From: Candidatus Dojkabacteria bacterium
GTDB lineage: Bacteria; Patescibacteriota; Dojkabacteria; SC72
Direction: 5' to 3'
Length of the DNA: 64,000 nucleotides
Assembly (NCBI GenBank): GCA_016182915.1
Contig: JACPFP010000003.1
Coordinates: 86,788 to 150,787 of the forward strand
Shown here: one piece after another, positions 1 to 59,554 of the stretch
Position numbering within the stretch: the stretch's first letter is position 1
Layout of the letters: each line of letters begins with the position of its first letter
Notes under the pieces: generated by a model
What the model saw: the letters and a program-made list of their open reading frames with translations, nothing else
The model's database searches: none
Told to the model about the DNA's origin: nothing
Position numbers and translations under genes: made by a program

Positions 1-135
1 GATACTACTCATCTGGTCTAGTAACCCCGAGGCAAATTGCCCCAAGGTATAATCCACATACTCCTAACGAATGGTCAAGAAAAGTCGAGTATGTAATGAG
101 TCAAATGTAGTATTTTTCTGTATAATATCAATATT

Positions 136-1197
136 ATGAGCAAGAAAGTCTTTGTTGGATTATCTGGCGGAGTTGATAGCGCAGTAGCTTCACTCCTACT
201 CCTTAAACAGGGTTACGACGTAACTGGTGTTTTCATGAAAAATTGGTCTGGAGAAGATTACGGAATTACTGATCAATGCCCATGGAAAGAGGACCTGGAG
301 GCTGCAAGAGAAGTAGCAAAATACCTCTCTATAGAACTTAAGGTCTATAATTTTGAGAAGGAGTATAGAGAGTTGGTAGTGAAAGACTTTTTCTACCAGT
401 ACAGTATTGGTAACACCCCCAATCCAGATATTCTCTGCAACAAATTTATAAAATTCGATAAGTTCCTAGAAAAAGCCATAGAAGAAGGCGCTGATTATAT
501 TGCCACTGGTCACTATGCCCATACAGACGGAAAGTCCCTTTTCAATGCCAAGGATGCAAACAAAGATCAAACATATTTCCTTCACCAGCTCACTGAAGCA
601 CAGCTCTCGCATGCGCTTTTTCCACTAGAAGAACTGAATAAAAGTGAAGTAAGGGAAATAGCGAAAAAAGAAGGATTACCTAACTATGCACGAAAAGACA
701 GTCAAGGAATATGCTTTATTGGGAAAGTTGATATTCAGGAGTTTCTAAAACAGGAATTAAAGGAGAAAACAGGAAATATAATTGATGTAGATTCAAATAA
801 GGTTGTAGGGAAACATATCGGGGTCTGGTTCTATACAATCGGTCAGAGGCAAGGGCTAAATGTTGGAGGGTTGAAATCTCCATACTTTGTATCGAGTAAA
901 GATGTTGAAAATAATATCCTTTATGTAGCACAGGGAAAAAAGAATCCGAAACTTTGGACCTTCAAATACGAAGTTGGTGAACTACACTTAATTAATAATG
1001 ACGATAACCTAGTAGGAATTGAAGGAGTAATCAGATACAGAGGCACAAGGTCAAAAGTAGAAGCTACAACCAATGGCACTTCGACAACAGTCACTTTTGA
1101 AAAACCTCAGTGGGGAGGGGCAGTTGGACAGAGTATAGTACTCTACAAAGACCGAAAGTGCCTTGGAGGCGGAGCTATAACAAAAATAGTTGAATAG
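136..1197 (+). CDS. mnmA: tRNA 2-thiouridylase MnmA
   Basis: PP-loop SGGVDS motif at N-terminus; full-length (353 aa) MnmA/TrmU-like sequence. Confidence 0.9.
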   Translation: MSKKVFVGLSGGVDSAVASLLLLKQGYDVTGVFMKNWSGEDYGITDQCPWKEDLEAAREVAKYLSIELKVYNFEKEYRELVVKDFFYQYSIGNTPNPDILCNKFIKFDKFLEKAIEEGADYIATGHYAHTDGKSLFNAKDANKDQTYFLHQLTEAQLSHALFPLEELNKSEVREIAKKEGLPNYARKDSQGICFIGKVDIQEFLKQELKEKTGNIIDVDSNKVVGKHIGVWFYTIGQRQGLNVGGLKSPYFVSSKDVENNILYVAQGKKNPKLWTFKYEVGELHLINNDDNLVGIEGVIRYRGTRSKVEATTNGTSTTVTFEKPQWGGAVGQSIVLYKDRKCLGGGAITKIVE

Positions 1198-1249
1198 TGG
1201 TAGGTAATTAATGTAAAATGGGATTTGCGTTTAACTAAAGAAGATTACA

Positions 1250-11582: not shown

Positions 11583-11827
11583 AGGAAAGAGTCTTGAAAA
11601 TTGAAGAAAGAAACAGAAGGGTAGAATTGGATAAGGAGTGGGAGACAAGCCTGGCAAGAAAAGTTCTTATTGCAATCCTTACATATATCGTTATTACCCT
11701 ATTCTTCCTTGTTACGCAGAATAGTTCTCCCTTCCTAAATGCAATAATTCCAACCCTAGGTTTCCTTTTATCCACCCTATCCCTTAACTATGCAAAAAAA
11801 CTCTGGATCCAAAACAGAAAAGTTTGA
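11570..11827 (+). CDS. small 2-TM membrane protein
   Basis: 85 aa; two hydrophobic helices after a charged coiled N-terminus. Confidence 0.4.
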   Translation: MDGIEERVLKIEERNRRVELDKEWETSLARKVLIAILTYIVITLFFLVTQNSSPFLNAIIPTLGFLLSTLSLNYAKKLWIQNRKV

Positions 11828-17852: not shown

Positions 17853-18947
17853 ATGTATACAGCACAATTCACTACAACTCAGTATATTCTAAGTTATATA
17901 GTCAAGTATGAGCTCTCACTTGAGAGGATTAAGAATACCCAACTTCCTGAGGTATATTTTAATGAACTTTATGAAAAGCTGCGAGCAGAAGATATCGATA
18001 AGTTAGGTGAGATAATTGGAAATAGCATTGGATATAGCAAGGCGTTACTTGTACAAAGAGGCAAGATACTCCCAACAGGAAAGAACAAGGACAGGATATT
18101 CACCAATTTCAGAAGTGTCCATGACTTCATCAATGTATACACCGCCTCATCTTTCTATAAACCATCTGCAGAGTTGATGGTACATATTAACAAGTTAATT
18201 GCCAAAGGATTAGTTGACGAATGGGAAATAGGAAAACTTAGAACATTTTCAGAGAAACCAAACGACCTATATGACTTCTGGTATAAATTAAGAGATTTCT
18301 TCCCAAACCTAAGACCGAAAAAACATCTTGACGATATATTTATGTGGATTAATACTCAAAAAAATGTACCACATAAATTGATACAGCTAGCAATTCTTCT
18401 ATATGAGATTATAGATAAAGCTCCCTTTACAGCCTTTAATCAAATAACCGGTATAATGACAATATCCGTTGTAGCAAAGGAGTATGGGTATAACCATAAG
18501 AATATAATTCCTTTCGCCAAAGCATTAAACCAAGTATCAGAAGAAATTGTAAGCGCTTTTAAAATCAGTAAATCAAAGAAAGACCTTACAATATTCATAG
18601 AAACGATATTATATGCCCTTGCCCTCACCGCCGATGATGTGGCACTACAAGTAAGGCGGACGTATAACACAAAGGTTAAGAAATTCAATAAGCTAGACGA
18701 TAGTCTTAATCCAAGACAGATTAAGGTCCTAGAGATTCTAGAAAAAGAAAAAAGGATTACAAGGATTCAATATGCGAAGAGTATGGGAATTTCCTTTATG
18801 ACAGCATTCAGAGACCTTCAGGAGCTACTGGAGCATAAGTACGTGCAACAGAAAGGGGTTGGAAGAGGAACATACTACGTTCTGCTTAAGACAAATACTG
18901 AGAGTATGCCACAGATACAGAAGGAAAGTATTCTCACTTTCAATTGA
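17853..18947 (+). CDS. Fic-like protein with degenerate active-site motif and C-terminal winged-HTH
   Basis: APFTAFNQITG sits where the Fic HPFx[DE]GNGR motif would be (catalytic His absent); C-terminal wHTH-like region. Confidence 0.4.
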   Translation: MYTAQFTTTQYILSYIVKYELSLERIKNTQLPEVYFNELYEKLRAEDIDKLGEIIGNSIGYSKALLVQRGKILPTGKNKDRIFTNFRSVHDFINVYTASSFYKPSAELMVHINKLIAKGLVDEWEIGKLRTFSEKPNDLYDFWYKLRDFFPNLRPKKHLDDIFMWINTQKNVPHKLIQLAILLYEIIDKAPFTAFNQITGIMTISVVAKEYGYNHKNIIPFAKALNQVSEEIVSAFKISKSKKDLTIFIETILYALALTADDVALQVRRTYNTKVKKFNKLDDSLNPRQIKVLEILEKEKRITRIQYAKSMGISFMTAFRDLQELLEHKYVQQKGVGRGTYYVLLKTNTESMPQIQKESILTFN

Positions 18948-18981
18948 AAAAAGACCTTTTAACTGATAATATTAACGACAT

Positions 18982-20409
18982 ATGGAAAGCAACTACGAAC
19001 TAATAATCGGCCTAGAAGTTCACGTACAATCAAAAACTAAATCAAAGATGTTCTGTAGCTGTGATTCCAACTACTTTAATACCCCACCGAATACACATGT
19101 TTGTCCCGTATGTTTCGGACTCCCCGGTGCCCTTCCTGTTCCAAACAGAAGAGCGGTTGAACTATGTATAAAGACAAGTCTTGCACTTAACTGTGAGATT
19201 AGCAAAGACACTAAGTTTGATCGTAAAAACTACTTCTATCCTGACCTTCCAAAAGGCTTTCAGATATCACAGTATGACAAACCAATCGGGCTTAATGGAA
19301 ATCTTGAAATAGAAACTGTGAGTGGATTAAAGCGAATTGGGATTACAAGAGTACATCAAGAAGAAGATACTGGGAAGTCTATTCATAACAATGGAGAAAC
19401 ATTTTTAGACTTTAACAAGTCCGGAGTACCGCTGATTGAAATTGTATCAGAGCCTGATTTTAGAACAAAAGAGGAAGTAACTACATACTGTAAAAGATTA
19501 AGGCAAATAGTTAGGTACCTAAAAATCTCAAATGCAGATATGGAAAGAGGAGAGATGAGATTCGAACTTAATATGTCCCTTCGTAAAGCAGGTGAGACCT
19601 CCCTTCCAAACTATAAAGTTGAAGTAAAAAATATCGCATCGATCTCTGTATTAGAAAAGGTAATCGATTACGAAATTAGAAGGCAGAGTGAGATATTAGA
19701 CCAAGGTGAAACCCCAAAACAGGAAACAAGAGGATTAATCGATATGACAGGGGAAACAACCTCTCAGAGATCTAAAGAAAACGAAGCTGATTATAGATAT
19801 TTCCCAGAGCCTGATATACCACTAATTGAGATATCTGATGAGATGATTTCTAAGATTAGAAAGGAATTGGTTGAACTTCCACAACAGAAAAAGGAAAGGT
19901 ATATAAAGGACTTTGGGATAGAGGCATCTAATGCAGAAACTATTATTTCTGATGTACAAACATATAAAGAGTTTGAGACCCTTGTTAAAAATACTGACAA
20001 AGCAGTTATCTTTGAAGTCGCAAAGTGGTATACAGGGGAATACTTTGCACTGCAAAATAACTCCATAAAAAATTCAAACTTCTCCCCTTCCTCACTTGTT
20101 GAACTAGTAACACTAGTTACAGAAAAGAAAATAACCAGAGCAAATGCAAAAGATGCGTTAATTGAGAGCTATACTACCGGAAAAACGATAGAAGAAATTA
20201 TAAAAGAGAAGGGATATGAAGTTGTAAGTGATATGGGACAGATTGAAAAAGTTGTAGACACAATAATGAGTAGCAACCCTAAAGCCGTAGATGATGCAAG
20301 AAAGAATCCAAATGCAGCCATGTTCCTTGTAGGACAGGCTATGAGAGAACTTAAGGGCCAGGCTGATGCACAGAGTGTCAAAGATTTAATTATGAGTAAG
20401 TTAAAGTAG
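18982..20409 (+). CDS. gatB: Asp/Glu-tRNA amidotransferase subunit B
   Basis: Full-length 475 aa GatB; conserved N-terminal ELIIGLEVH. Confidence 0.95.
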   Translation: MESNYELIIGLEVHVQSKTKSKMFCSCDSNYFNTPPNTHVCPVCFGLPGALPVPNRRAVELCIKTSLALNCEISKDTKFDRKNYFYPDLPKGFQISQYDKPIGLNGNLEIETVSGLKRIGITRVHQEEDTGKSIHNNGETFLDFNKSGVPLIEIVSEPDFRTKEEVTTYCKRLRQIVRYLKISNADMERGEMRFELNMSLRKAGETSLPNYKVEVKNIASISVLEKVIDYEIRRQSEILDQGETPKQETRGLIDMTGETTSQRSKENEADYRYFPEPDIPLIEISDEMISKIRKELVELPQQKKERYIKDFGIEASNAETIISDVQTYKEFETLVKNTDKAVIFEVAKWYTGEYFALQNNSIKNSNFSPSSLVELVTLVTEKKITRANAKDALIESYTTGKTIEEIIKEKGYEVVSDMGQIEKVVDTIMSSNPKAVDDARKNPNAAMFLVGQAMRELKGQADAQSVKDLIMSKLK

Positions 20410-23261: not shown

Positions 23262-23301
23262 TACTTTACATATGGGCGTGAAACACACTATACTGATATA
23301 A

Positions 23302-24090
23302 ATGAAAGTATTTGTAATTGCAAATCAAAAAGGTGGAGTAGGGAAAACTACGACTACTATCAATCTAGGAGCTAGCCTTGCAAAAGCAGGCAAGAGGGTT
23401 CTTCTCATAGATCTAGATCCACAAGCCAACCTGACTTCCGGAGTAGGGTTTTCTCAACAATTTAGTAAAGATAGTTGGCAGAATACCGACACAGCACCAT
23501 ACAAAAGTATCTATGATGTACTCATTGAGAAACTACCTATCTCTTCAGCTTTTGTAACTACTTCAATAGAGAATATGCTCCTAGTCCCCTCTCACCTCTC
23601 ACTTGCAGGAGCAGAGATAGAGATGGTTAATATGCTTTCCAGGGAGACGCTTCTTAAAAACGCCATAAAAGACTTTAAGGAAGATGTTGATTATGTACTT
23701 ATAGACTGTCCTCCATCGCTTGGACTTCTAACAATCAATGCGTTGTGTGCAGCTGATGAGCTAGTCATCCCAATCCAATGCGAATACTTTGCTTTAGAAG
23801 GGCTTGGACAACTTCTGCATACAACTAAGCTAATAAAGACTGTAAATCCACAACTGAATATTGGAGGTGTAGTATTAACTATGTTTGATAGTAGAACAAA
23901 ATTATCTGAGAGTGTTGTTAATGACGTAAAAGAGTTTTTCAAAGATACAATGTTTCAGACAATTGTTCCTAGAAATGTAAGACTATCAGAAGCACCTTCG
24001 CATGGAAAAACAATTGTAGAATATGATCCCAATTCAACAGGTGGAATTGCATACGCATCACTTGCCCATGAGTTTATTAAGCGATTTTGA
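23302..24090 (+). CDS. parA: Chromosome partitioning ATPase ParA/Soj
   Basis: Deviant Walker A KGGVGKTTT. Confidence 0.9.
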   Translation: MKVFVIANQKGGVGKTTTTINLGASLAKAGKRVLLIDLDPQANLTSGVGFSQQFSKDSWQNTDTAPYKSIYDVLIEKLPISSAFVTTSIENMLLVPSHLSLAGAEIEMVNMLSRETLLKNAIKDFKEDVDYVLIDCPPSLGLLTINALCAADELVIPIQCEYFALEGLGQLLHTTKLIKTVNPQLNIGGVVLTMFDSRTKLSESVVNDVKEFFKDTMFQTIVPRNVRLSEAPSHGKTIVEYDPNSTGGIAYASLAHEFIKRF

Positions 24091-24112
24091 CTAATTTGTT
24101 AACATTATTGTA

Positions 24113-24970
24113 ATGGCAGAAAATCAAAGATTAGGGAAAGGATTGGCAGCATTAATAAGTTCGGAGAAGATATCAAACAGTTCTGGAGCATATAATGAGA
24201 ACTTTGATATAACAAAGATATCACCAAACCCATACCAACCTAGAATGCACATAAATCCGGAAGAACTCATTGAGATTGCCGACTCTATAAAAGAGCACGG
24301 AATAATTCAGCCATTAATTATTACAAAGGACGAGGGATCTGATAGGTACTTTTTAATTGCAGGAGAGAGAAGATATAGGGCCTCACAACTTGCAGGGCTT
24401 AAAACTGTACCTGTAGTTATAAAGGATGCTTCCCCACAGCAGATGCTTGAGCTGGCTCTAATTGAAAATATACAAAGACAAGACCTTAATCCCCTTGAAG
24501 AGGCTGTAGCGTTTAAACAGCTACAAGAGGAATTCAACCTAACTCAAAGTGCAATTGCTAAGAAAGTCGGGTTAAGTAGAGTCGCTATTACAAATAAGAT
24601 TAGGCTCCTAGGGCTCCCTGAGGAGGTCAAGGAGGCCGTACTTAATGAAAAGCTGTCAGAAGGTCATGCACGTGCTTTACTAGGCATTACAGACCAATCA
24701 TCACTCGTAGCGGCCGCTAGCATTGTAATGAGAAGAGGACTAAGCGTAAGAGAGACGGAACAGATGGTAAGAAAGATTAATTATGGAAGAACAACGTCCA
24801 AGCAGACAGATGAAGATGTGATGAAATATATTAGTGATGTTGCAAAGAGACTATCTTCAAGGATTGGATACACCGCACAGATTACCAAACTAAGTAATGG
24901 TGGGAAGATAGTAATCAGATATAATAGTACAAAGGAATTAGATGATATAGTAAAGAAAATGGGAGTATAA
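24113..24970 (+). CDS. parB: Chromosome partitioning protein ParB/Spo0J
   Basis: ParB box GERRYRA; HTH region; directly follows parA. Confidence 0.9.
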   Translation: MAENQRLGKGLAALISSEKISNSSGAYNENFDITKISPNPYQPRMHINPEELIEIADSIKEHGIIQPLIITKDEGSDRYFLIAGERRYRASQLAGLKTVPVVIKDASPQQMLELALIENIQRQDLNPLEEAVAFKQLQEEFNLTQSAIAKKVGLSRVAITNKIRLLGLPEEVKEAVLNEKLSEGHARALLGITDQSSLVAAASIVMRRGLSVRETEQMVRKINYGRTTSKQTDEDVMKYISDVAKRLSSRIGYTAQITKLSNGGKIVIRYNSTKELDDIVKKMGV

Positions 24971-27185: not shown

Positions 27186-27536
27186 CTACTTTTTAGAATT
27201 TTTAATCTTCTTGACTTCTAAACGAGTTACTAATGGTCTACTTCCGTAGGACCTTCTATATCTAGCCTTAGCTTTATATTTGAAGATATCGATCTTCTTT
27301 CCCTTCTTCTGTGAATCTATTACAAATTCAACAGAGGCGCCGTCAATATATGGCTTTCCAATCTCAACGTTCTCTCCATCTGCAATGAGCAATACCTTTT
27401 CAGATACATACTTATCACCTTTCTCACCTGCAAGTTTCTTTCCTTCAACCATATCTCCTTCAGAAAGTCTGGCTTGTGTTCCATTGATATCTACAATTGC
27501 GTATTTCTTTGTAATTTCTTTTGTGGTTTCAGACAT
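27186..27536 (-). CDS. rplU: 50S ribosomal protein L21
   Basis: YAIVDINGTQARLSEGD N-terminus typical of bL21. Confidence 0.85.
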   Translation of the reverse strand: MSETTKEITKKYAIVDINGTQARLSEGDMVEGKKLAGEKGDKYVSEKVLLIADGENVEIGKPYIDGASVEFVIDSQKKGKKIDIFKYKAKARYRRSYGSRPLVTRLEVKKIKNSKK

Positions 27537-27562
27537 AACATTGGATTTTAATTTAATAACTG

Positions 27563-28861
27563 CTAATTGTCAATAAAAAGCTTATGATTCATTATACTTT
27601 GTATAAGTCCCAATGAGAAGAAGGTGGCGAGCATTATACTCCCTCCTGCACTTACAAGGGGTAGTGGAATTCCAGTGGCTGGGGTGATGCCCATATTCGT
27701 TCCAAGGTTAATGAATACTTCCAGAAGGATTTTCATACCTAGCGCCACTACTAATGTTGTAGCAAAAAGATCTCCTTTTGTGATAATTGGGAATCTGAAT
27801 ATTGCAATAAACATGGCAATATAGAGTAGGACGAGAATTGTAGATCCTAATAGTCCTGCTTGCTCAGCATATGAGGCAAAAATAAAGTCGGTTTGATGTT
27901 CTGGAAGGAAGTCTCTGCTTGCCTGTGTCCCCTTTCCAAAACCCTTTCCAAAGATTCTTCCCGACCCTATCGCTATTTTAGCCTGATCTACATTAAATGT
28001 GCTACTTGCATCTGCACTTTCCGGACTGATAAAAGAGGTTATTCTTTCCTTCTGATATGGAAGAAGGATTGAATTCCATGAATAGCTTAAAAAGAGGCCT
28101 GAAAAAACAGATATTGAAAAACAAATGGCCGCAAGTGCCATCCAATTTTTTCTTGAGAATGCAGAGTATATGAATATAACAATACCGAAAAAGAGAAGGA
28201 CGAGGAAGAAGTAGTCTTTGAATACTAAGATTCCCCATATACCTATAATAGTTGAGAGAATTATTGCTAGCATAAGGAAATTTCTAAACTGCTCACGAAG
28301 GGAGAAGAATATTGTAATAGCCCAAATTAAAAATAAAACGAGTGTCATACTTCCATGAGGTTGCATATATACCAGAATAAGGATTGGAAGGACAAGTAGG
28401 AGTGAAATTGGAACTAAGGCGTATTCACTATATTTATCCTGTAAAGTCATTACATATGCGGTAACTATAATTACAACGATTTTTGCAAATTCTGAGGGTT
28501 GTAACTGAACACCACCGAATGAGAACCACCGTTGGGCACCTTTTACCTCTTCTCCAAAAAGGAGAGTGAGGATTAGAAGAAGAATAGTAGAGCCATAAAG
28601 AAGATAAAGCAAAGGTTTGTACTTAAGATATGAATGGTCAACATGGCTTAGGAGGTAGTAGGAGGTGATACCTATAAGGACAAAGATAATTTGTTTAGTT
28701 GCAATCGCGGGTATAGCACCGCTTGATATGAATTCAGGCCCTGTGGAAATTAAGGTAACAATACCAATTATTGAAAGTATAATAGCTGGAATAATCAGGA
28801 GAGGAGATATCTTAAATCTTTTTTCCTTTCTTATAATCTGCATACTGTCTAATAACCTCAA
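27563..28861 (-). CDS. ftsW: SEDS-family peptidoglycan glycosyltransferase FtsW/RodA
   Basis: 10-TM SEDS architecture; conserved C-terminal motifs; adjacent to ftsZ. Annotated start is a TTG, and the true start may be the downstream Met. Confidence 0.8.
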   Translation of the reverse strand: MRLLDSMQIIRKEKRFKISPLLIIPAIILSIIGIVTLISTGPEFISSGAIPAIATKQIIFVLIGITSYYLLSHVDHSYLKYKPLLYLLYGSTILLLILTLLFGEEVKGAQRWFSFGGVQLQPSEFAKIVVIIVTAYVMTLQDKYSEYALVPISLLLVLPILILVYMQPHGSMTLVLFLIWAITIFFSLREQFRNFLMLAIILSTIIGIWGILVFKDYFFLVLLFFGIVIFIYSAFSRKNWMALAAICFSISVFSGLFLSYSWNSILLPYQKERITSFISPESADASSTFNVDQAKIAIGSGRIFGKGFGKGTQASRDFLPEHQTDFIFASYAEQAGLLGSTILVLLYIAMFIAIFRFPIITKGDLFATTLVVALGMKILLEVFINLGTNMGITPATGIPLPLVSAGGSIMLATFFSLGLIQSIMNHKLFIDN

Positions 28862-30159: not shown

Positions 30160-30180
30160 TTTGAATTATGCAAAACTAAA

Positions 30181-31626: not shown

Positions 31627-32421
31627 CTATTCTACCTTTATTACAGGCCTTTCATATCTTAAGTCTAGGAGGGAGAATTTGATATTTTTGTTCTTAATCT
31701 CCTCTGCTATAACCACAAAACGAGCAAGTTGTTTTTTTAGTTCCTGATTAAAGGATATAACAACAATCTTCTTGTCTTCTAACTGAATCTGGCATACTCC
31801 ATCCTTTATTGAGAATCGATCTGGTTCATAGCCATACTTTTCCAATATCTTGGTAATATCATTGATACTGTAGGTGTAGTAGAAGGAGGACTGTGTATTA
31901 GGGGTTAGGATAGGAAATGGGGCTACATCAACTGAAATAAGGTTCATTTTAGACTGATACTCTGTACAGGCTTCTTCATTTTCCAAGACTTCAAGAGTGT
32001 AGGCATCTGAATCAATAACGCCACATTTCCCACCCTTTTCCTTAATTAGATACACCGGAACTCGTTCAACTATATTCACCTGTACTTTGTCTAAAAGAGT
32101 TTTCTCTATCCAGAAGCTTTTCACATATGGATTTTTACCTGTTATATCGGATATCGTTTCACTGGTAATACTGAAGTATGATTTGCCAACTAACTGATCT
32201 TTTAGTTCTCGCTTAAACTCCTGGGTTATATACTCTGTCTTTTTATATTCATGATTTTTTATATCTACTCTCTCTATATTGAATATACTTATCCTTGGCA
32301 ATACGATAACTGCAAGACAGAGGAAAACTAGGTACAGTATATACTTTAGGTATTTAGAATACTTTCTAAGTATGAACTTCCCTTTGCTTATTTCTCTATT
32401 TTTACTTGTTACAACATCCAT
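31627..32421 (-). CDS. ftsQ: FtsQ/DivIB-like cell division protein
   Basis: N-terminal TM then POTRA-like region; position upstream of ftsA. Confidence 0.55.
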   Translation of the reverse strand: MDVVTSKNREISKGKFILRKYSKYLKYILYLVFLCLAVIVLPRISIFNIERVDIKNHEYKKTEYITQEFKRELKDQLVGKSYFSITSETISDITGKNPYVKSFWIEKTLLDKVQVNIVERVPVYLIKEKGGKCGVIDSDAYTLEVLENEEACTEYQSKMNLISVDVAPFPILTPNTQSSFYYTYSINDITKILEKYGYEPDRFSIKDGVCQIQLEDKKIVVISFNQELKKQLARFVVIAEEIKNKNIKFSLLDLRYERPVIKVE

Positions 32422-32486
32422 AGGAATATATTAACAAGTGGGTGGGAAGATTGATAGAGGGCTAAATTACATTTAGAGAGGGATTT

Positions 32487-33828: not shown

Positions 33829-34507
33829 AGAGAACGACTGTTCTCATCTTACTCTTTGACCTCTTTCCTAGTGCAAGGTATAACCAACCCGCGCTGATGA
33901 GGAGGATTCCTGCGGCTAAGGCCCCCCAGCTGAATGATACTGCTGTATTTGGAAATGTAGGCGTTGGTGTAGATCCCGTACCTGAAGTTGTATACGTTGC
34001 AGTTGCAGGTTTCTTTGTTAATGCATTTGTAGGAGGGCTTCCATTCTTCATAATCACACTCATGAAGTCTTTGTTTGTACCGTCATGGTTCCACTCAAGT
34101 TTAATTGTCCCAGCCTTTTTAACCTCAAACTTCACTCTTGCAAAAACATCTGCTCCACCCACCGTTTTATAAAGGGTATCTGTACCTGTTTGACAGAATC
34201 CAGTCAACATAACTACGCCATATTTATTGTCTACACTTAATTGATCTGTTGGATATGAACAGAAGAGGGATGCGTTATATTCTGGTTTTACAACTTTTAC
34301 CATTGTAGGGTCGAAAAGAAGAGTAGCTCTTGCCTGAGCAATATCAAGTCCTGCGCTATCAATTAGGACATCAACGGTGAAGGTTTTCCCAACCGTTACC
34401 ACTCCCTTACTCGGATATATTGAAAATGAAGGATCTGCAGCATATGTTCCTGCCTCAAAGAGGAAGAGGATAGCTAGGCTTAAAAGTAGTACTAGTAGTT
34501 TTTTCAT
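33821..34507 (-). CDS. Secreted Ig/cohesin-like protein with PT linker and C-terminal TM anchor plus basic tail
   Basis: Signal peptide; PT-rich linker; C-terminal hydrophobic helix followed by KRSKSK. Confidence 0.45.
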   Translation of the reverse strand: MKKLLVLLLSLAILFLFEAGTYAADPSFSIYPSKGVVTVGKTFTVDVLIDSAGLDIAQARATLLFDPTMVKVVKPEYNASLFCSYPTDQLSVDNKYGVVMLTGFCQTGTDTLYKTVGGADVFARVKFEVKKAGTIKLEWNHDGTNKDFMSVIMKNGSPPTNALTKKPATATYTTSGTGSTPTPTFPNTAVSFSWGALAAGILLISAGWLYLALGKRSKSKMRTVVLYD

Positions 34508-34520
34508 TATAGAAATAATA

Positions 34521-35771
34521 TCACAAATATTTCGAAATTATTCTATCAAAGTCTTTCATTCTTTTCTCCCAGCTATTTGAACGTGCAATGGAAAGTCTCT
34601 CTTTCAACCTTCTCTTCCACTCGTTTGGGTCATCAGACTTCATCTTTATCCAATACTCAAGCGCATTTATGAACTCACTCTTTGTATCAGCTATAGACCC
34701 AAGATTAGGGTTAACTGAGAACTCTTTTAGTGATTGAATCCCGGTAACAACGACAGGCAGTCCACTTGAAAGATACTCAAAATACTTGAGCGGGAATCCT
34801 CCCTCATTCGCTTTATTCCTTCTTCTCGCAATCAATGCAACGTCCCAATATTTGAAATATGAAGGTAAGGTCTTGTATGGCTTAGGACCAAACATATAGA
34901 CGTTGGAGAGGGACTTTAAACCTTCAATATTAGTACTGGTTTCTCCAGAACCTACTGGTCCCAAAAAAACATAGTTGTATTTTGGGGTATCTTTTATAAC
35001 ATCGTATAGAAGTTCTAAGTTCTCTTTGTATGAAGCCAGATTTCCCATAAACCCAACGGTTGGTTTTCCCTCTTTCAATATCGGCTTCATGTCGCTTGGA
35101 ATAGATAATTTCTCTTTTACAGCCCTATTAAAGTATGAGAAATTAGCTACATTATTTAGGTAGAATACCTTTTTAGGAGGAACTTTTTCCTTGAAGGAGT
35201 CTGCAGTAACTGGGGAAACAGCAAATACAATATCTGCTTTCTCCAAAATCTTATCCTGCTCCGAAAGTACATACTTTTTATCAACATTAGGAACCTCGGA
35301 GTAGTCGTCGACGTTGTGATAGATAGAAACACTATGGTCCAGAGTATCTATCAGGAAATGTCCTGTAGGAAGAAAGATCCAAAGGATAGGTTTTTCTCTT
35401 AAGTATTTCCTCGCATACTTACTCACAAAGTATGTAATTAGTTTCTGATTAATCCTCTTTATAATAGATATATTTTCAAATGGGAGTCTGACAAGTGAAA
35501 GAACAAATATATTCTTCTTTGGCTTTGAAAGTCCCTTGAAGATGAGGTTTGCGAAGTCTAAAAGCCTTTTTCCAACCTTATATGCTCCAGTACTTCCTAA
35601 TACAGGGTTTGTTTTAAGGCCTAGGCTCTCTACGAATAGTACCTTAGCACCACTTTTAGCAATCTCATCCGTAATTATCTGAGCATTTAGGACATTTTCC
35701 GTATGCATTGTATAGTTGCAGGAAGATATCAGTACTACATCCCTCTTTTTAAACATATTCCTAGGTATCAA
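34521..35771 (-). CDS. GT4-family glycosyltransferase
   Basis: GT-B fold C-terminal half. Confidence 0.7.
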   Translation of the reverse strand: MIPRNMFKKRDVVLISSCNYTMHTENVLNAQIITDEIAKSGAKVLFVESLGLKTNPVLGSTGAYKVGKRLLDFANLIFKGLSKPKKNIFVLSLVRLPFENISIIKRINQKLITYFVSKYARKYLREKPILWIFLPTGHFLIDTLDHSVSIYHNVDDYSEVPNVDKKYVLSEQDKILEKADIVFAVSPVTADSFKEKVPPKKVFYLNNVANFSYFNRAVKEKLSIPSDMKPILKEGKPTVGFMGNLASYKENLELLYDVIKDTPKYNYVFLGPVGSGETSTNIEGLKSLSNVYMFGPKPYKTLPSYFKYWDVALIARRRNKANEGGFPLKYFEYLSSGLPVVVTGIQSLKEFSVNPNLGSIADTKSEFINALEYWIKMKSDDPNEWKRRLKERLSIARSNSWEKRMKDFDRIISKYL

Positions 35772-43591: not shown

Positions 43592-45271
43592 TTATGGTAA
43601 TATTATATCTCTTTCTGGATTCACATTCTCAAACTCAGCAACAACAACTTCAAAGTATTTTTTTGCATTCTGAATACTTGTCATCGTAATACCACTTCTA
43701 GGAATTACCTTCCATGCATTATTCCCGATTTCAGATATAACATCAAGTTTAAGCTCTGAAATTATCTGTAGGGCACGGGATTCGGATGTACTCATTGAGA
43801 ACGCTAAAATATATGGACCCCTCTGGAATTTATCTCTAAGGGTATTCCAAAGATCATTACTTCCGGCATCATAGCCTAAAGCCCAAATCCCTATTCCTCC
43901 AAGTTTTGCACTTCTTACATAATCATACTTTGCACCAAGACTCCTTGGATCATCATAGTATCCATGTCTCCATTTACCTCCATAAAGGTAGACATACCAG
44001 GTAGCTTTCTCACTATTATTCCATTTTATAGAGTTACTGTTGTGATATACGTCAAACTCAGGATCCACAATACTACCGTACGTCTCAATAATTCCCTTAC
44101 AACCGGAATAATATAAAATTCTTGCGTTATACAAATCTTTATCGCTTGTCCTTACCTCAAAATCTATGCCATAGTATGGGATACCCTGGAGTATCTTCTT
44201 ACTTGGGGCCTGTTTAGCAGCTTCTGCAAGGTGATATGAGACATTCCAGTTCGTAGCAATTGCAGCATTTCCATACAATGGTGACATTGGAAATATTCGC
44301 TTACCGTCATAGCAAGATGTAGTAATATAATCATAGTTCATAAACATGATGTAATCGATTGAAGTAGCTCCCAGTCCTGCAATATCGTATGCTGAGTATC
44401 CTGCTGCGGAAGAGCCAAAAACATCCGTGCTTACTATAGAGCCGGGGAACTCAGTATGCATCCTATCCGCCAATTTATCATGCCACTTAACAAAATTAGA
44501 TCTTAAGGTTGTGGTAACAGGGTAGTTACTATCTGGTATGTACTCAAAGTCAATATTTACGCCATCAAGGCCTTTCGAACGGACAGCGTTTACAATGTTT
44601 GTAATCAACTTATCCCCTGCTCCTCCAGTGTTGGCCACAAGATCTCGGATGCTTCTATTATGAAAATTCTTTACAACAAGGATTACCTTTGCATTTTTCT
44701 GATGTGCAAGTGTTACCATGTTCGTAAAATTTCCAGAGTGAAAACCTGAATAACCCGAATCATTTGTTACCCACTCCCCGTTGTCATAGCAGGTAAGGGC
44801 AAAATATGCCACAGAGGTAAGCTTGTCATATTGCATTGTACTGTACCTAGAGAGCTGCCAGTATGGCAAAAAACCCATAACTTCCTTATCGCTATTAGAA
44901 TTTGCGTACATCAGTTGTCTATCTTCAACACTCAAAGACCTTGTATTACTCACTTCACTCCCACTCTCTTCCCATTTATAACTGCCTTTTGAATACCTCT
45001 CCTCTTCAATCATATGGATTGTTTTAGGTGAGTCTACCTTTTTTACAACCTCTGTTTTGACTATCTCCTCTATCTTTCTATCTATACCTTCCAAAGAGAC
45101 TGATGTCTCACCCAAGATCTCCCCACTATCTACAGTGTCACTATCGACTCTATTATAGGTGTTTAGAACAGAAAGACGGTTTGCCTTGGTTGAAAGGTTG
45201 GTAAATATAATCCCCAGAAAAAGTAGAGAAAAAATTACCCCAATTATGTATACTATCTTCATACGTTTCAT
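43592..45271 (-). CDS. GH18-family glycoside hydrolase (chitinase/ENGase-like)
   Basis: GLDGVNIDFEY catalytic DxxDxDxE motif; N-terminal TM/signal. Confidence 0.75.
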   Translation of the reverse strand: MKRMKIVYIIGVIFSLLFLGIIFTNLSTKANRLSVLNTYNRVDSDTVDSGEILGETSVSLEGIDRKIEEIVKTEVVKKVDSPKTIHMIEEERYSKGSYKWEESGSEVSNTRSLSVEDRQLMYANSNSDKEVMGFLPYWQLSRYSTMQYDKLTSVAYFALTCYDNGEWVTNDSGYSGFHSGNFTNMVTLAHQKNAKVILVVKNFHNRSIRDLVANTGGAGDKLITNIVNAVRSKGLDGVNIDFEYIPDSNYPVTTTLRSNFVKWHDKLADRMHTEFPGSIVSTDVFGSSAAGYSAYDIAGLGATSIDYIMFMNYDYITTSCYDGKRIFPMSPLYGNAAIATNWNVSYHLAEAAKQAPSKKILQGIPYYGIDFEVRTSDKDLYNARILYYSGCKGIIETYGSIVDPEFDVYHNSNSIKWNNSEKATWYVYLYGGKWRHGYYDDPRSLGAKYDYVRSAKLGGIGIWALGYDAGSNDLWNTLRDKFQRGPYILAFSMSTSESRALQIISELKLDVISEIGNNAWKVIPRSGITMTSIQNAKKYFEVVVAEFENVNPERDIILP

Positions 45272-45294
45272 TCTAACTTAATAGTACCAACTCA

Positions 45295-46071
45295 ATGACT
45301 CTATTACAAACCGTTGTGCTTGCTGTTGTACAAGGAATTACAGAATTACTACCGGTATCAAGTTCTGGGCACCTCATTCTAACCTCTAAACTCCTTAGCA
45401 TTGACTCTATTTCAACTTTTACACTCACCTCTCTTCACTTGGGAACAACAATTGCAATAATTCTTTTTAACTGGAAGTTCCTCTTCACGAATATAAATTC
45501 AAAGATAAAGTTGTATAGCTATATTGTCGTGGCAACTATCCCTGCAGCGATTATTGGAGTTCTTTTTGGTGATGTAATAGAAGGATACTTAAGAGGAACT
45601 TTTGTTGTAGCAACAATGTTAATAGTAGTAGGTGCAATTATGCTCTACGTAGATAGAAAGTTCGTAAAGGTAGGAGTAAAAGAGGAAGTTAAGTTAGAGG
45701 ATATAACTTTTAAACAGACTCTTGTAGAAGGTTTGGCTCAGTCCATAGCATTAGTTCCTGGGGTTTCAAGATCAGGAATTACGACTATTGCAGGTATGTT
45801 TTCGGGGATTTCGCAGTATACAGCGATTCGTTTAAGTTTCATACTTGGTATTCCAATTCTCGTTGGATCATTCACATATGAGATGTTTAAGACCGAAAAT
45901 AGCTTAAATCTTTTAACCCAAACAAATAGCTTAGTTGCAATTATCATAACCTTTGTAGCCGGTTATATGTCTCTCTGGTTCCTTGATAAGATGTCTAAAA
46001 CAAGATTCCTAAGGTATTTTGGTATATATAGAATAGTGGTGGGAGTTTTGATATTAATTTTATTCATTTAA
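45295..46071 (+). CDS. uppP: Undecaprenyl-diphosphatase
   Basis: ELLPVSSSGH N-terminal motif and SRSG motif. Confidence 0.9.
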   Translation: MTLLQTVVLAVVQGITELLPVSSSGHLILTSKLLSIDSISTFTLTSLHLGTTIAIILFNWKFLFTNINSKIKLYSYIVVATIPAAIIGVLFGDVIEGYLRGTFVVATMLIVVGAIMLYVDRKFVKVGVKEEVKLEDITFKQTLVEGLAQSIALVPGVSRSGITTIAGMFSGISQYTAIRLSFILGIPILVGSFTYEMFKTENSLNLLTQTNSLVAIIITFVAGYMSLWFLDKMSKTRFLRYFGIYRIVVGVLILILFI

Positions 46072-47238: not shown

Positions 47239-47279
47239 TATAATTGGATACTGCCTACTAATCTTGAATATGAGGATGT

Positions 47280-49989: not shown

Positions 49990-50038
49990 GAGATAATGGC
50001 AGTATCTGTAACTTAATGTTTTCTAATAATACAATAAT

Positions 50039-51121
50039 ATGGAGTTTTTAAGCAAAGGAGACCTGGAAGAGCTACAGAAAGAGATTCTAGACACAGTATC
50101 TTCATTAAAGATTGACGAGAAGATCTCAAGATTAGGGGAATTGCAAACAGAATCTATGGAAGAAGACTTCTGGAAAGACACGAATAGGGCAAAGAAGATT
50201 CTTTCAGAGATGGATATGATCAAAAATGAGGTGGAATCCTCCAAAAAACTTACAGACGATATCGATTTCCTCCTTCAGATGTATAACGAGACGACGCAGT
50301 CAGGACAGGAGGAGATTATAGCTGAGTATCAAGCATTAAAAGACCGCTTCACAAAATTCCAAACCATCAAATTTCTAAGTGGAAAGTATGACTCACACAA
50401 TGCAATTCTCTCCATACACGCAGGACAAGGCGGTACAGAGGCAAATGACTGGGCACAGATGTTAATGAGAATGTATGTAAGATACTGTGAAAGGTTAGGC
50501 TGGAAAGCTGAGGTTATACATATGGTACAAGGGACAGAGACAGGGATCAGCAGCGTAACAATATCAATAAGCGGTCTATATGCATTTGGAAAGCTTAAAA
50601 AAGAGATGGGAACCCACAGATTAGTCCGTCTTTCTCCATTCAATGCTCAAAACCTCAGACAAACCTCCTTTGCAGGAGTTGAGGTTGTACCTGAGATTGA
50701 GGAGGACGATAGTGATATTGTTGTTAAGGATGAGGACTTAGAAATAAAGGCGGTGAGAGCTGGAGGGGCCGGTGGACAACATGTAAATAAAACATCCTCA
50801 GCTGTACAGCTAACTCACCTCCCTACAGGAATCACAGTTCATTCCTCTGAAAGAAGAGACCAGTTCCAGAATAAAAGTGCAGCTATTGCAATCCTTAAAG
50901 CCAAACTCTGGCAGATTGAGGAAGAGAGAAGAAGTAACGAATTGAAAAATATAAAAGGTGAACATAAGATAGCCGGATGGGGAAACCAGATACGAAATTA
51001 TGTCCTCCATCCATACAAATTAGTAAAGGACTTAAGAACCGGAGTTGAAACAAGTAACGCAGAGGCGGTCTTAGATGGCGATCTGGAATCCTTTGTTGAA
51101 GCGCAGGTCAGATTACAGTAA
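50039..51121 (+). CDS. prfB: Peptide chain release factor 2 (single uninterrupted ORF, no programmed frameshift)
   Basis: SPF tripeptide (RLSPFNAQ) and GGQ (RAGGAGGQHVNKT). Confidence 0.9.
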   Translation: MEFLSKGDLEELQKEILDTVSSLKIDEKISRLGELQTESMEEDFWKDTNRAKKILSEMDMIKNEVESSKKLTDDIDFLLQMYNETTQSGQEEIIAEYQALKDRFTKFQTIKFLSGKYDSHNAILSIHAGQGGTEANDWAQMLMRMYVRYCERLGWKAEVIHMVQGTETGISSVTISISGLYAFGKLKKEMGTHRLVRLSPFNAQNLRQTSFAGVEVVPEIEEDDSDIVVKDEDLEIKAVRAGGAGGQHVNKTSSAVQLTHLPTGITVHSSERRDQFQNKSAAIAILKAKLWQIEEERRSNELKNIKGEHKIAGWGNQIRNYVLHPYKLVKDLRTGVETSNAEAVLDGDLESFVEAQVRLQ

Positions 51122-51130
51122 AATGGGGTT

Positions 51131-52144
51131 ATGGATAAAGATATGAATCTGCCAATAATTAATTTCTTGGACGTTTCCAAAGTATATGCTGGGGGAATCG
51201 TTGCACTAAATAAGGTGACCTTCGCAGTCGAGCCTGGGGAGTTCACCTTTATCGTAGGCCCCAGCGGTGCCGGAAAATCGACCTTAATCAGTCTTCTAAT
51301 TAAAGAGGAGAACCCAAGTGATGGAAAGATATACTTTGAGGATATTAATGTTCCTTCAATCCCACGTAAGCTTCTATCAGTATATAGACAACAGTTAGGA
51401 ATTGTATTCCAGGATCTAAAATTAATAGGCTCCAAAACAGTTAGAGAGAATATACAGTTCGCACTAGAAATTACAAATAGTAGAAAGAATGAGGAGATAG
51501 ATGAGACAACTAACTACCTACTAGATATTGTAAACCTTAAAGGTCGTTCTCACCTCTTCCCTGAAGAGCTATCCGGTGGTGAGAAGCAGAGGGTTGCCAT
51601 TGCACGAGCATTAGCCAATGATCCTAAGCTGTTTATAGCAGATGAGCCTACAGGAAATCTTGATCAGGAAAACGCAGAAGAGATTATGAATATTCTGAAG
51701 GCTATTAACGAATGGGGAACTACTGTTGTAGTAATAACCCACGACAATGCAATTGTTGATAGAATGAAAAGAAGAGTAATAGGTATGAATCAGGGAGCCA
51801 TAGTCTCAGATGAGAAGAGTGGTGAGTATAAAACACAGACAGGAAGAAAACCTTCCTTCCTGAAGAGACTAAACGAAAAAGCCTCAACTGATGATGACAC
51901 CAAGGACAAGGAGACGGTACTTCACGATACAAAAGAGCATAAAATAGATAGAGATGTAGATCCTGTAATTCACGAGATTAGGAAAAGAGATAAGAAGCTT
52001 GCTAAAAAACTTGCCAAGGATGGTATAGATTCATTAGAGAAGATACTAGACGAGTCAGAGGAAGAATTAATCTCCAAAGGATATAAAAAGAAACAGATGG
52101 ATATATTGGAAAACGTAGTTAAAAACTATTATAGTAGTAAGTAA
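51131..52144 (+). CDS. ftsE: Cell division ABC ATPase FtsE with about 110-aa charged C-terminal extension
   Basis: Walker [10 protein letters not shown]; signature LSGGEKQR; followed by ftsX. Confidence 0.85.
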
Positions 52145-54395: not shown

Positions 54396-54441
54396 TCTAG
54401 GATTTCACTTTGATTTCATCTTCATCCTGTACCATTAAGGT

Positions 54442-55221
54442 ATGGTATATGACCTCTCAAAAAACAGATGGATCGGAATAATACTCTTCAGTGTTATATT
54501 GGCAATACTACTCGCTCTTAAAGTCAGGGAGAATTATGTATTTGCGTCATCTTCAGTCGTTTTCAATGAAATTTTCTATGACCCAAGTGGAACAGACAGT
54601 GGTTATGAGTGGATAGAGTTGTACAATCCCCTCTCCGTTGAACTTCCTATAGGAGGATGGAAGGTTCAGGTAGCAGGAAGTATCTTTACTGATGTGGCAA
54701 CCCTACCTATAATCTCAATTCCAACGAAAGGTTATCTAACAATATGCGAAAGCAAGGTTGTAGAGTGCGATGTCTACGTAAGTAAACTCACTATACAAAA
54801 TGGAGGAGAGTCTTCAGATGGTATTCAACTATTAGACAGCAAAGGAAATGTTGTAGATACGGTTATATACGACTCTCCAAATACCAATAACCTCACAAAA
54901 GAGAATGGAACCGTAGTTGGAAATAACGAGACTGCTTCAGCAAGTGGAAGTGGAAAGAGTATAGGGAGAAAGAATATGATTGATACAGATAACTCATATA
55001 ATGACTTTTATATTTTCGACACCCCGACTTTTGGTAGTATAAACACTACCTCTGAAGTTCTCCTTCCGACGGGTGAGTTTCCTCTATTGATTATCCTCAT
55101 TCTCCTCTTTATTCTTCTAACATATTCTGATAGACTAAACGGATATAGAATAAATTTATTAGATAGTTTAAATGCCACGAACAAAGTCAAAAGCCTCTTC
55201 CACATCAAAAAAGGTAGCTAA
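54442..55221 (+). CDS. Lamin-tail-domain (LTD) protein with N-terminal TM and C-terminal TM
   Basis: VVFNEIFYDPSGTDSGYEWIELYN LTD motif. Confidence 0.6.
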   Translation: MVYDLSKNRWIGIILFSVILAILLALKVRENYVFASSSVVFNEIFYDPSGTDSGYEWIELYNPLSVELPIGGWKVQVAGSIFTDVATLPIISIPTKGYLTICESKVVECDVYVSKLTIQNGGESSDGIQLLDSKGNVVDTVIYDSPNTNNLTKENGTVVGNNETASASGSGKSIGRKNMIDTDNSYNDFYIFDTPTFGSINTTSEVLLPTGEFPLLIILILLFILLTYSDRLNGYRINLLDSLNATNKVKSLFHIKKGS

Positions 55222-57694: not shown

Positions 57695-58192
57695 TCATTC
57701 TGTCTTAAGAACCTTTTTTAATACTTCTGAAGTGGAAGACATGTTCATAGCATCTATTTGAAGAAATTCAATGCCTAGTTCTTCGGCTATCTTCTTCTTT
57801 CTGAAAACATATTTATCCTTTACTGTAACAGTTAACAGGAATGTTGGTTGCAATTTTCTCCAAATCTCGGTATGTATTAAAATGGCTTCTTTACTTGCAA
57901 AATCATAAATATCATCCACTCGGAAAATATAATCTATAGATTTCAACTCGTTCAACTGCTCCGCCCTATCCACAAACGTGTTTATTGGTCTTCCAACTCC
58001 TTTTGATAACTCAATAGATTTGTCATTTTCTAGCCCAATAAAAAGAATATCGACTTTATTTTTAGCTTCTTTGAAAAACTTAATATGACCAATATGAAGA
58101 ATATCAAAGCAACCAGTAATTAAGCCAACTTTCTTACCTTCTTTCCTATACTCTTTACTTAAATTGCATGCTTTTTGAAGTTTGATAATCAC
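57695..58192 (-). CDS. Cytidylyltransferase-like nucleotidyltransferase (HIGH motif; TagD/RfaE-II-like)
   Basis: GCFDILHIGH motif. Confidence 0.6.
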   Translation of the reverse strand: MIIKLQKACNLSKEYRKEGKKVGLITGCFDILHIGHIKFFKEAKNKVDILFIGLENDKSIELSKGVGRPINTFVDRAEQLNELKSIDYIFRVDDIYDFASKEAILIHTEIWRKLQPTFLLTVTVKDKYVFRKKKIAEELGIEFLQIDAMNMSSTSEVLKKVLKTE

Positions 58193-58300
58193 TGACTATA
58201 ATTATAGCTCAAAATTCAATAGTCTGCTAACTAAAGTCCAATCTACTTCAAAGTTAAACTTCAGGTTAAGGAATATGTCATATACGGGGAGCCATATCTT

Positions 58301-58987
58301 CTATGAAACTTTTGTTCCCTCAACCAAAAGGGTGTCACAATAAAACATATAAGGAGGATTTGCTTCTTTCGTATCATCAACGACACTGTCTCCATCAGTA
58401 TATTTCATATTGAAATTCGGAAATGCATTATTTAGCATTTTAATTGCAGTTTCTTTTGTGTACATAGGTTCTTCACCAAAAACTAATCTTTGTCCTTCTC
58501 TATCAATTCTTTTTATATTAATTGAGAATTCAATAGCTATTTTCCCTCCAACTCTTAATATTCTTGATATTTCAGTAGCCATCACGTTGAAGATCATTTC
58601 TGGAAAAAGGTATAACGTACCCGAATTAAACACCCCATCGTAGCTATTTGAGTCTAATGGAAATGATTTTACTAGATTAAAAACTTTTAACTCCAATTTT
58701 CTTTGCAGATTGACCGGAGTATTTGCAAATAATTTATCTAACGCTCCTTGATCTATATCAACATCAAGAACATTATCTGCAGTATTTGCTATTAAATTAT
58801 TATATCTTCCGTCTCCAGCAGCTAAGTTTACCCAGCTTGTACCCTTTTTTACAACCCGCTTTAGAAAATCTACTGTTGCCGTATCCTCTTTTCCCCATAT
58901 TGAACTTTTTGAGGTTTTAGAATAATCAATACCTTCTGAGAATACAAATTCCTTTTCATTTGCAGGAACTGGTTTGGCTTTTGGCAT
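58301..58987 (-). CDS. Class I SAM-dependent methyltransferase
   Basis: VNLAAGDGRY motif I. Confidence 0.6.
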   Translation of the reverse strand: MPKAKPVPANEKEFVFSEGIDYSKTSKSSIWGKEDTATVDFLKRVVKKGTSWVNLAAGDGRYNNLIANTADNVLDVDIDQGALDKLFANTPVNLQRKLELKVFNLVKSFPLDSNSYDGVFNSGTLYLFPEMIFNVMATEISRILRVGGKIAIEFSINIKRIDREGQRLVFGEEPMYTKETAIKMLNNAFPNFNMKYTDGDSVVDDTKEANPPYMFYCDTLLVEGTKVS

Positions 58988-59140
58988 TTTTTGTAAAACT
59001 AAAGTTATGATTAATTATACAACAACATCTGGTAATTGACTTAGTTGATTGTAAATCAGCCTTAAAGTTAAGAAGTATATAGTATTGTAGCATTACTTCT
59101 TCTTTCATCATCTAGCTATAAATTAGTGATATAATTTCGC

Positions 59141-59554
59141 ATGATAAAAATATCAAAAGCAACAAGGAAAGATGACTTAAATAAAGAATGGAAAGAGTTC
59201 TCACATTTAAAATATGGTCAAGGGGCCAATTGGATTGAAAAGATCTACAGATTTAAGGCGGTAGAAGATGGGAAGATATTAGGCACAATAGAAGGTAAGT
59301 ATGAGCCAGGAGTTATATATATTTCAGCCCTAATGGTAACAGAAAACGCTCGTGGGAAAGGTATTGGAAGAATGCTAATTGAAAAAACAGAAAAGTGGGG
59401 AAAGACTCTAGGTGCTCATAGAACATGGTTAAGCACAGGAGCCAATTGGTCTAATCGTTCATTTTACGAAAAGCTAGGATTCAAAGTGATTGCGAACTTC
59501 TCCGATTTCTATTTTCATAAAGACTTTGTAATTTACAGCCGTTTAATAAAATAA
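59141..59554 (+). CDS. GNAT-family N-acetyltransferase
   Basis: RGKGIGRML motif A; TATAAT ends 6 nt before the ATG. Confidence 0.75.
   Translation: MIKISKATRKDDLNKEWKEFSHLKYGQGANWIEKIYRFKAVEDGKILGTIEGKYEPGVIYISALMVTENARGKGIGRMLIEKTEKWGKTLGAHRTWLSTGANWSNRSFYEKLGFKVIANFSDFYFHKDFVIYSRLIK

Follow-up and report, generated by a model that had tools for sequence, protein, structure and literature searches.

The window analysed here is a stretch of 64,000 nucleotides (nt) from Candidatus Dojkabacteria (WS6, belonging to the candidate phyla radiation (CPR)/Patescibacteria; GC 34-40%). It is tightly gene-packed, with 62 genes used for analysis, among them mnmA, gatA, gatB, parA, parB, rplU, prfB, iPGM (cofactor-independent phosphoglycerate mutase) and several fts genes, as well as eight tRNA genes; no other Rfam family was matched. 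A sequence-only reading of the window had described pervasive -10-like boxes 5-9 nt upstream of start codons together with an absence of Shine-Dalgarno (SD) sequences, and had taken the transcripts to be likely leaderless mRNAs. The subject of this analysis is the sequence immediately upstream of these start codons and what it suggests about how translation begins in this lineage.

The window was enlarged by ~10 kb upstream (locus L081) and ~8 kb downstream (locus L082) and compared with two syntenic blocks out of six to seven other Dojkabacteria genomes. The window's FtsA matched a protein annotated as Candidatus Dojkabacteria, encoded on a 506,665-bp NCBI contig, at 100% identity and had many relatives at 68-88% identity, and an FtsZ search of genome contigs returned relatives only at ≤57% identity. 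Start codons were taken from open reading frame (ORF) and gene-caller output. Three grades of hexamer were defined: loose (A2, T6 and at least 4/6 matches, spacer 4-10), strict (T1, A2, T6 and at least 4/6 matches, ending 5-10 nt before the start) and strong (at least 5/6 matches or TG-extended). Genes lying ≤10 nt after the preceding stop were classed as coupled. Pooled TAnnnT profiles by gap class were replaced with a single-genome test and an ortholog-level test because their peaks were largely ortholog-driven; the latter covered the upstream regions of 26 groups, with 3-7 genomes per group. The same crude pipeline was applied to AT-rich control loci of similar GC from Firmicutes (Bacillus and Clostridia).

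Promoter-type boxes next to start codons

The enrichment of -10 boxes before start codons is genuine but confined to a subset of genes, so that the earlier description holds for genes with strict and strong boxes and fails in the word pervasive. Strict boxes preceded 25 of 63 non-coupled genes of this genome, where dinucleotide shuffles gave 13.9±3.2 (p≈0.001), and strong boxes preceded 15 versus 6.4±2.3, a count that none of 1000 shuffles reached; other 6-nt windows further upstream held only 2-9 strong boxes. Coupled genes showed no enrichment (4/18 versus 3.7). Perfect TATAAT was seen four times versus 0.27-0.76 expected, and TGnTAnnnT at spacer 5-9 six times versus ~0.5 expected. The excess over chance is ~9-11 genes. 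Within the window 22/62 genes carried a box, and 21 of these 22 candidates begin with ATG. When the best promoter per gene was taken from a position weight matrix scan, two clusters emerged, one at spacer 5-9 and another at spacer 25-34, the latter therefore corresponding to leaders of ~20-25 nt. Since the spacers range from 5 to 10, per-position base composition upstream of 61 window genes did not resolve into a sharp, phased logo. A box at spacer 5-10 was present in 28-47% of genes at the Dojkabacteria loci versus ~19% in shuffles, and in 0-2 of 16-18 genes per Firmicutes control locus.

The position of the box is also conserved. In 9 of the 26 ortholog groups (parA, a cohesin-like gene, GH18, ftsQ, rplU, parB, ftsE, gatB and an LTD-domain gene; Table 1) 60% or more of the genomes had a strict box ending 5-10 nt before the start, versus 0-5 groups for other 6-nt windows. 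The coupled genes M23, ftsX, MTase and SpoU were without a conserved box. In two alignments, A1 (parA) and A2, the -35, -10 and ATG were kept while the flanks diverged. The parA promoter (10/12 in the promoter scan) has its -10 lying 6-8 nt before ATG in 7/7 genomes; in A1 the elements GTGAAACA, TA.A.T and ATG are invariant, with -35 TTTACA or TAGACA and -10 TATACT or TAGATT in register. At rplU, the top sigma-70 match in 20 kb (11/12), the arrangement TTGACA-17-TAAAAT/TAATAT followed after 8-9 nt by ATG is kept in 5/7 genomes. The gatB TGnTAnnnT box occurs in 3/3 genomes at spacers 9, 6 and 11, the cohesin-like gene has a TGnTAnnAT box ending 6-10 nt before ATG in 7/7, the ftsQ strict -10 sits at spacer 6-7 in 6/7, GH18 has an extended -10 6-10 nt before its ATG in 5/5, and an nAnnAT box at spacer 5-7 precedes the LTD-domain gene in 5/5. 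At ftsE, a TAnnAT hexamer begins at the prfB stop (TAA or TAG) in 6/6 genomes (the window and loci L091, L092, L093, L094 and L089), taking the forms TAAAAT, TAAGAT, TAGTAT and TAATAT; its spacer is 6-7 in 4/6 genomes, the remaining two having spacers of 12 and 29. For parB (spacer 6-8 in 5/7) the case is weaker, with no -35 and a TG that is not conserved. Just outside the nine, prfB has TATAAT-8-ATG in loci L089 and L092.

Table 1 Start-proximal boxes and ACTGCC(T) copies in the window, with the number of Dojkabacteria genomes in which an ortholog carries a strict box
Gene or feature	Position (strand)	Elements	Genomes with strict box
parA promoter	23265..23304 (+)	-35 TTTACA 23265-23270, 18 nt, -10 TATACT 23289-23294, 7 nt, ATG 23302	7/7
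Cohesin-like gene	34505..34523 (-)	extended -10 TGaTATTAT, hexamer 34515-34520, 7 nt, ATG at 34507	7/7
GH18 (-) / BacA (+) divergent starts	45269..45297	GH18 box TGgTACTAT, hexamer 45281-45286, 9 nt before ATG; overlapping BacA-side TAATAG	GH18 5/5
ftsQ	32419..32436 (-)	extended -10 TGtTAATAT, hexamer 32428-32433, 6 nt, ATG at 32421	6/7
rplU (L21) promoter	27534..27573 (-)	-35 TTGACA 27568-27573, 17 nt, -10 TAAAAT 27545-27550, 8 nt, ATG at 27536	5/7
parB	24097..24115 (+)	TGtTAACAT, hexamer 24100-24105, 7 nt, ATG 24113, within 22-nt parA-parB gap	5/7
ftsE	51119..51133 (+)	-10 TAAAAT 51119-51124, its TAA being the prfB stop, 6 nt, ATG 51131	4/6
gatB promoter	18944..18984 (+)	-35 TTGAAA 18944-18949, 17 nt including TGa, -10 TAATAT 18967-18972, 9 nt, ATG 18982	2/3; third genome at 11 nt
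LTD-domain gene	54430..54444 (+)	-10 TACCAT 54430-54435, 6 nt, ATG 54442	3/5; relaxed 5/5
prfB (RF2)	50025..50041 (+)	AT-rich -10-like AATAATAC, 6-8 nt before ATG 50039; 49-nt divergent gap with iPGM	3/6; relaxed 6/6; under the 60% cut, outside the nine
mnmA	121..138 (+)	perfect TATAAT 121-126, 9 nt, ATG 136	window sequence only
GNAT gene	59127..59143 (+)	extended -10 TGaTATAAT, hexamer 59130-59135, 5 nt, ATG 59141	window sequence only
Imm5-like gene	59970..59983 (+)	perfect TATAAT 59970-59975, 5 nt, ATG 59981	window sequence only
Cytidylyltransferase-like gene	58190..58206 (-)	perfect TATAAT 58201-58206, 8 nt, GTG at 58192	window sequence only
ftsZ	30157..30170 (-)	CATAAT 30165-30170, 5 nt, ATG at 30159; probably a chance match, outside the system	background, 0/6
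MTase			background, 0/7
S26 peptidase			background, 0/7
gatA			background, 0/3
ftsA			background, 1/7
ftsW			background, 1/7
SpoU			background, 1/7
GT1			background, 1/7
ftsX			background, 1/5
M23			background, 1/5
iPGM			background, 1/6
ACTGCC(T) copies	22638-22643 (+), 47250-47255 (+), 50003-49998 (-), 31513-31508 (-)		

Several features identify these boxes as promoter elements. A -35 hexamer stands 17-18 nt from the -10 at rplU, parA and gatB, many other candidates having a poor -35 match, and a TGn extension is present at gatB, ftsQ, the cohesin-like gene, GH18 and GNAT; a -35 at 16-18 nt and/or TGn, as expected of a sigma-70 promoter, was thus seen in a subset of genes only. The tRNA genes are preceded by the same TGnTAnAAT and TATAAT boxes, and enrichment is confined to sites at which a promoter would be expected. 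Given the -35 partners, the TGn extensions, the parA alignment and the tRNA boxes, the hexamers are best regarded as promoter elements and not as ribosome signals. Between the end of the tRNA boxes and the mature 5' ends lie 8-17 nt, and the earlier suggestion that promoters of RNA elements share the spacing seen before ATG codons was not upheld.

The individual sites named in the sequence-only reading were recovered to differing degrees. TATACT-7-ATG at parA, TAATAT-9-ATG at gatB (with a TGa extension) and TAAAAT-6-ATG at ftsE are present as cited. The TATAAT boxes before ATG 136 (mnmA) and ATG 59141 (GNAT) also exist, but with spacers of 9 and 5 nt rather than the 8 and 6 nt given; both are plausible members of the promoter class. 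CATAAT-5-ATG is found before ftsZ as described, in an ftsA-ftsZ gap of 21 nt (21-28 nt among the genomes compared), but is not conserved (0/5 relatives). With no strict box in any of the 5 relatives, its role as an internal leaderless promoter was rejected, and it is probably a chance match.

Gene spacing in these genomes is tight. Of 38 divergent pairs, 18 have starts ≤57 nt apart and six have starts 21-24 nt apart, leaving little space for 5' untranslated regions (UTRs); 70/190 same-strand junctions overlap (ATGA, TAATG) or are ≤10 nt apart. The GH18 and BacA starts, for example, are 23 nt apart in the window and 21-24 nt apart in the five genomes that have the two genes as divergent neighbours, and a BacA box is present in 3-4 of 7 genomes. 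The gap between them (45272-45294) holds a near-palindromic TTGGTACTATTAA bearing -10 boxes for both directions.

Three further observations were made alongside these. The sequence GTGAAACA (23279-23286 (+)), which lies between the parA -35 and -10 and does not vary among the 7 Dojkabacteria genomes, probably serves a regulator of parAB as its operator. Locus L054 (CAZOWX010000001.1), from a metagenome-assembled genome labelled 'uncultured Pseudomonadales', encodes an FtsZ 52% identical to that of the window; 6% of its ORFs have SD, and 8/16 carry a -10 box at spacer 5-10 where 1.9 would be expected. Its taxonomic label seems wrong, and the signature of absent SD and start-proximal -10 boxes may extend beyond Dojkabacteria. 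Finally, five intergenic stretches of 200-465 nt each (13617-14081, 14442-14847, 11583-11789, 61470-61684 and 62147-62381) contained no ORF of at least 100 aa and no Rfam match, and in the two longest the only ORFs are small (30-87 aa). These stretches may harbour small genes or RNAs that lack annotation.

Shine-Dalgarno depletion and the ACTGCC(T) element

The absence of SD sequences before starts was borne out, and the earlier claim understated it, as SD-like motifs are depleted. GGAGG was found upstream of none of 61 window genes, and GGA at -20..-3 preceded 2/61 versus 14.9 expected from other ATGs. G content is ~10% in positions -25..-1 versus 18.5% across the window, AT content in the 20 nt upstream of starts is 75% versus 62% before other ATGs, and the mean duplex energy with the canonical anti-SD is -0.59 kcal/mol at starts versus -2.61 at other ATGs. 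Across ~260 unique Dojkabacteria upstream regions, SD 4-mers occurred in 3-10% of every gene class versus 15% in an internal-ATG control, with the coupled genes at 10% and a mean duplex energy of -1.93 versus -3.09. The same pipeline recovered SD in 53-62% of genes at the Bacillus and Clostridia loci. The sole clear SD-like sequence before a called start, AAGGAGGAG within 10633-10652 (+), ends ~9 nt before ATG 10653 of a Tim44-like gene; as it falls in coding sequence of the preceding gene, it may be a chance occurrence.

Neither the window nor 14 related loci contained an rRNA gene from which the anti-SD could be read. Among CPR, loss of the anti-SD is described only for some Parcubacteria, bS1 is short (3-4 domains) but present, and bL9 is lost in Dojkabacteria (PMC9297842). 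A literature search gave nothing specific to CPR, Patescibacteria or Dojkabacteria on either leaderless mRNAs or the use of SD. In the window, RF2 (prfB, 50039-51121 (+)) is a single uninterrupted 360-aa ORF with SPF and GGQ motifs, and is therefore without the programmed +1 frameshift that depends on an internal SD, in keeping with a lack of SD pairing in this organism.

A second element, ACTGCC(T), was observed 8-30 nt upstream of ATG at ftsA, the S26 peptidase gene, the two iPGM paralogs and a small number of other genes. Each of the 4 intergenic copies in the window is oriented towards a start codon, and further copies were found in loci L081, L083, L085, L088, L090, L093 and L094. The two iPGM paralogs (L081 7146-8681; window 48334-49989) have ACTGCC just before both starts. 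At ftsA the element is exact in 4/7 genomes (5 counting ACTGCT) and at the S26 peptidase gene in 3/7, with degenerate forms in 2 more. Because it always lies 0-7 nt downstream of a -10-like hexamer, ACTGCC(T) would probably be at or near the transcription start site (TSS) of mRNAs with short leaders. The ftsA gene also has a strong match, TTGACA-17-(TG)AACAAT, ~90 nt upstream of its ATG (31590-31618 (-)) and a conserved TAAAAT at spacer 17-22, so that a second promoter or a longer leader may exist at this gene. As a general alternative to SD, ACTGCC was rejected: it precedes only 4 window genes and shows no overall excess (19 versus ~15 expected). It could nevertheless be a lineage-specific signal for start sites or ribosome recruitment.

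Proposed leaderless transcripts and competing explanations

Taken together, these patterns suggest that in about a third of genes a sigma-70-type promoter abuts the start codon and yields a leaderless mRNA, the other genes being coupled or having short SD-less leaders, a reading to which we assign a probability of roughly 0.68. The -10 TAnnnT, often TGn-extended and sometimes partnered by a -35 at 17-18 nt, ends 5-10 nt before ATG, mostly at genes that are first in their transcription units but also at units starting within tight gene arrays. From this spacing we infer that the first transcribed nucleotide would be the A of the ATG or a position 1-3 nt upstream of it, producing an mRNA without a 5' UTR whose 5'-terminal AUG, by analogy with other bacteria, may be bound directly by ribosomes (70S, fMet-tRNA, IF2). 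Downstream cistrons would then be reached by termination-reinitiation at overlapping or adjacent stop and start codons, and a further class, including ftsA, the S26 peptidase gene, iPGM and others, would have short, A/U-rich, G-poor leaders of ~10-25 nt. The earlier proposal of leaderless mRNAs is thus supported for a subset by enrichment, conserved position and -35/TGn partners, but pervasive is too strong a word for it, with ftsA and the S26 peptidase gene better read as having short leaders.

A number of observations weigh against the leaderless reading. Loose hexamers preceded 28/61 genes versus 22.9±3.6 in AT-matched controls, which is not significant, and generic -35/-10 matches in 20 kb numbered 57 versus 60.9±8.4 in shuffles; both are at AT-rich background and are therefore unable to carry the claim. 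Among genes with a long upstream gap, the positional profile of simple TAnnnT lacks a sharp peak. Since the orthologs are phylogenetically related, they do not give independent counts of conservation. Spacers of 9-10 nt would imply 2-4-nt leaders rather than none, and the boxes of ftsE, parB and rplU lie inside same-strand gaps of 9-26 nt, where read-through and reinitiation could also serve. One candidate, the cytidylyltransferase-like gene, starts with GTG, which is atypical for a leaderless mRNA, and the leaderless reading as a whole rests on sequence.

Some of these points would be accounted for if the boxes were chance matches in AT-rich, G-poor upstream DNA, with long operons served by distant promoters, translation by coupling or from unstructured A/U-rich leaders, and no leaderless mRNAs. 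The behaviour of loose hexamers and generic matches fits such a view, and the background frequency that the sequence-only reading had named as grounds for abandoning its claim is indeed nearly reached by weak matches. The unconserved boxes of ftsZ, M23 and ftsX, the AT-richness of the upstream 20 nt and the many same-strand junctions of ≤10 nt fit it too. Strict and strong boxes, however, exceed dinucleotide shuffles (≤1/1000) and do so at spacer 5-10 only, TGn-extended boxes are ~12-fold above expectation, conservation is specific to that position, rplU, parA and gatB have -35 partners, and the AT-rich Firmicutes loci are almost without boxes there; chance is thus improbable as the whole explanation. 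Slightly less probable still is that TAnnnT is a non-SD ribosome-binding or translation-enhancer signal of the Bacteroidota type, read by the ribosome or S1 and not by RNA polymerase. The lack of SD, the upstream G depletion, the boxes within very short same-strand gaps (parB, ftsE, rplU) and the presence of a bS1, albeit a short one, in CPR are all compatible with it. Yet motifs of that type (GeneMarkS-2 group B) stand before first and internal genes alike (PMC6028130), and here coupled or internal genes show neither enrichment nor conserved boxes (MTase 0/7, SpoU 1/7, ftsX 1/5), the element is accompanied by a -35 hexamer 17-18 nt away and by TGn extensions, both of them features recognised by sigma-70, and the same boxes precede tRNA genes, which are untranslated.

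It is very improbable that the start codons were mis-assigned and that the real starts lie downstream, making the boxes ordinary promoters with normal 5' UTRs. Starts did come from ORF and gene-caller output, and a few calls are doubtful (SurA_N overlaps the upstream gene, and some relatives have GTG/TTG calls). Against this, Pfam domains begin at residue 1 in ParA, residue 3 in MnmA and residue 8 in GatB (GatB_N), so these starts cannot be moved downstream; N-terminal residues are conserved among orthologs right from the ATG, and no alternative class of starts is preceded by SD. A more far-reaching version of the leaderless reading, which we regard as unlikely but less so than any of these alternatives, is that SD:anti-SD pairing has been wholly abandoned and that initiation proceeds only via 5'-terminal AUGs, reinitiation at tight junctions and short leaders at ACTGCC(T). 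If true, this initiation regime would be nearer to that of some archaea and tied to a reduced ribosome.

If the leaderless reading is correct, start prediction in Dojkabacteria, and perhaps in other CPR, should use a leaderless/promoter model and not one based on ribosome-binding sites (RBSs), and CPR genes placed in other hosts would need added RBSs. A deep-branching lineage with ultra-small genomes would also join the bacteria that rely on leaderless mRNAs, being SD-less even at internal cistrons, with a bearing on how translation initiation evolves under ribosome and genome reduction. For the mapping of 5' ends in metatranscriptomes, the conserved promoters of parA, rplU, gatB and GH18 offer specific targets.

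Relation to known systems

The closest likeness is to the group C genomes of GeneMarkS-2 (Actinobacteria, Deinococcus), where a Pribnow box lies 6-8 nt from gene starts (PMC6028130). As in that group, including Mycobacterium tuberculosis and Deinococcus, a Pribnow-type -10 stands 6-8 nt before first genes, here above chance, SD is lacking before those genes, ATG starts predominate and the estimated share of transcription units concerned is 25-50%. Group C genomes are not classed as non-SD, their internal and leadered genes carrying RBSs (PMC6028130), whereas here operon-internal and leadered genes are without an SD-type RBS and SD is at or below background everywhere. The lineage also differs, being an AT-rich member of the CPR/Patescibacteria with a reduced ribosome.

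The A/U-rich, G-depleted upstream regions in which SD is essentially unused resemble those of Bacteroidota (group B). In that group, however, one non-SD motif precedes all genes, including internal ones, and cannot be a promoter, whereas coupled genes here are without the motif, and the -35 and TGn partners that accompany it are typical of promoters. Leaderless first cistrons, weak or absent SD and tight operon junctions are shared with leaderless archaeal genomes such as Haloferax and Sulfolobus (group D), but the promoter box of those archaea lies ~26 nt upstream of the start, and the sigma-70 -10 here ~7-12 nt upstream. The stop/start overlaps and gaps of ≤10 nt likewise recall translational coupling by termination-reinitiation, which in model bacteria is usually aided by an SD lying within the preceding gene; no such SD was seen here. 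Leaderless initiation itself is already known, and what would be new is its occurrence in this lineage, which is unusual in lacking SD throughout.

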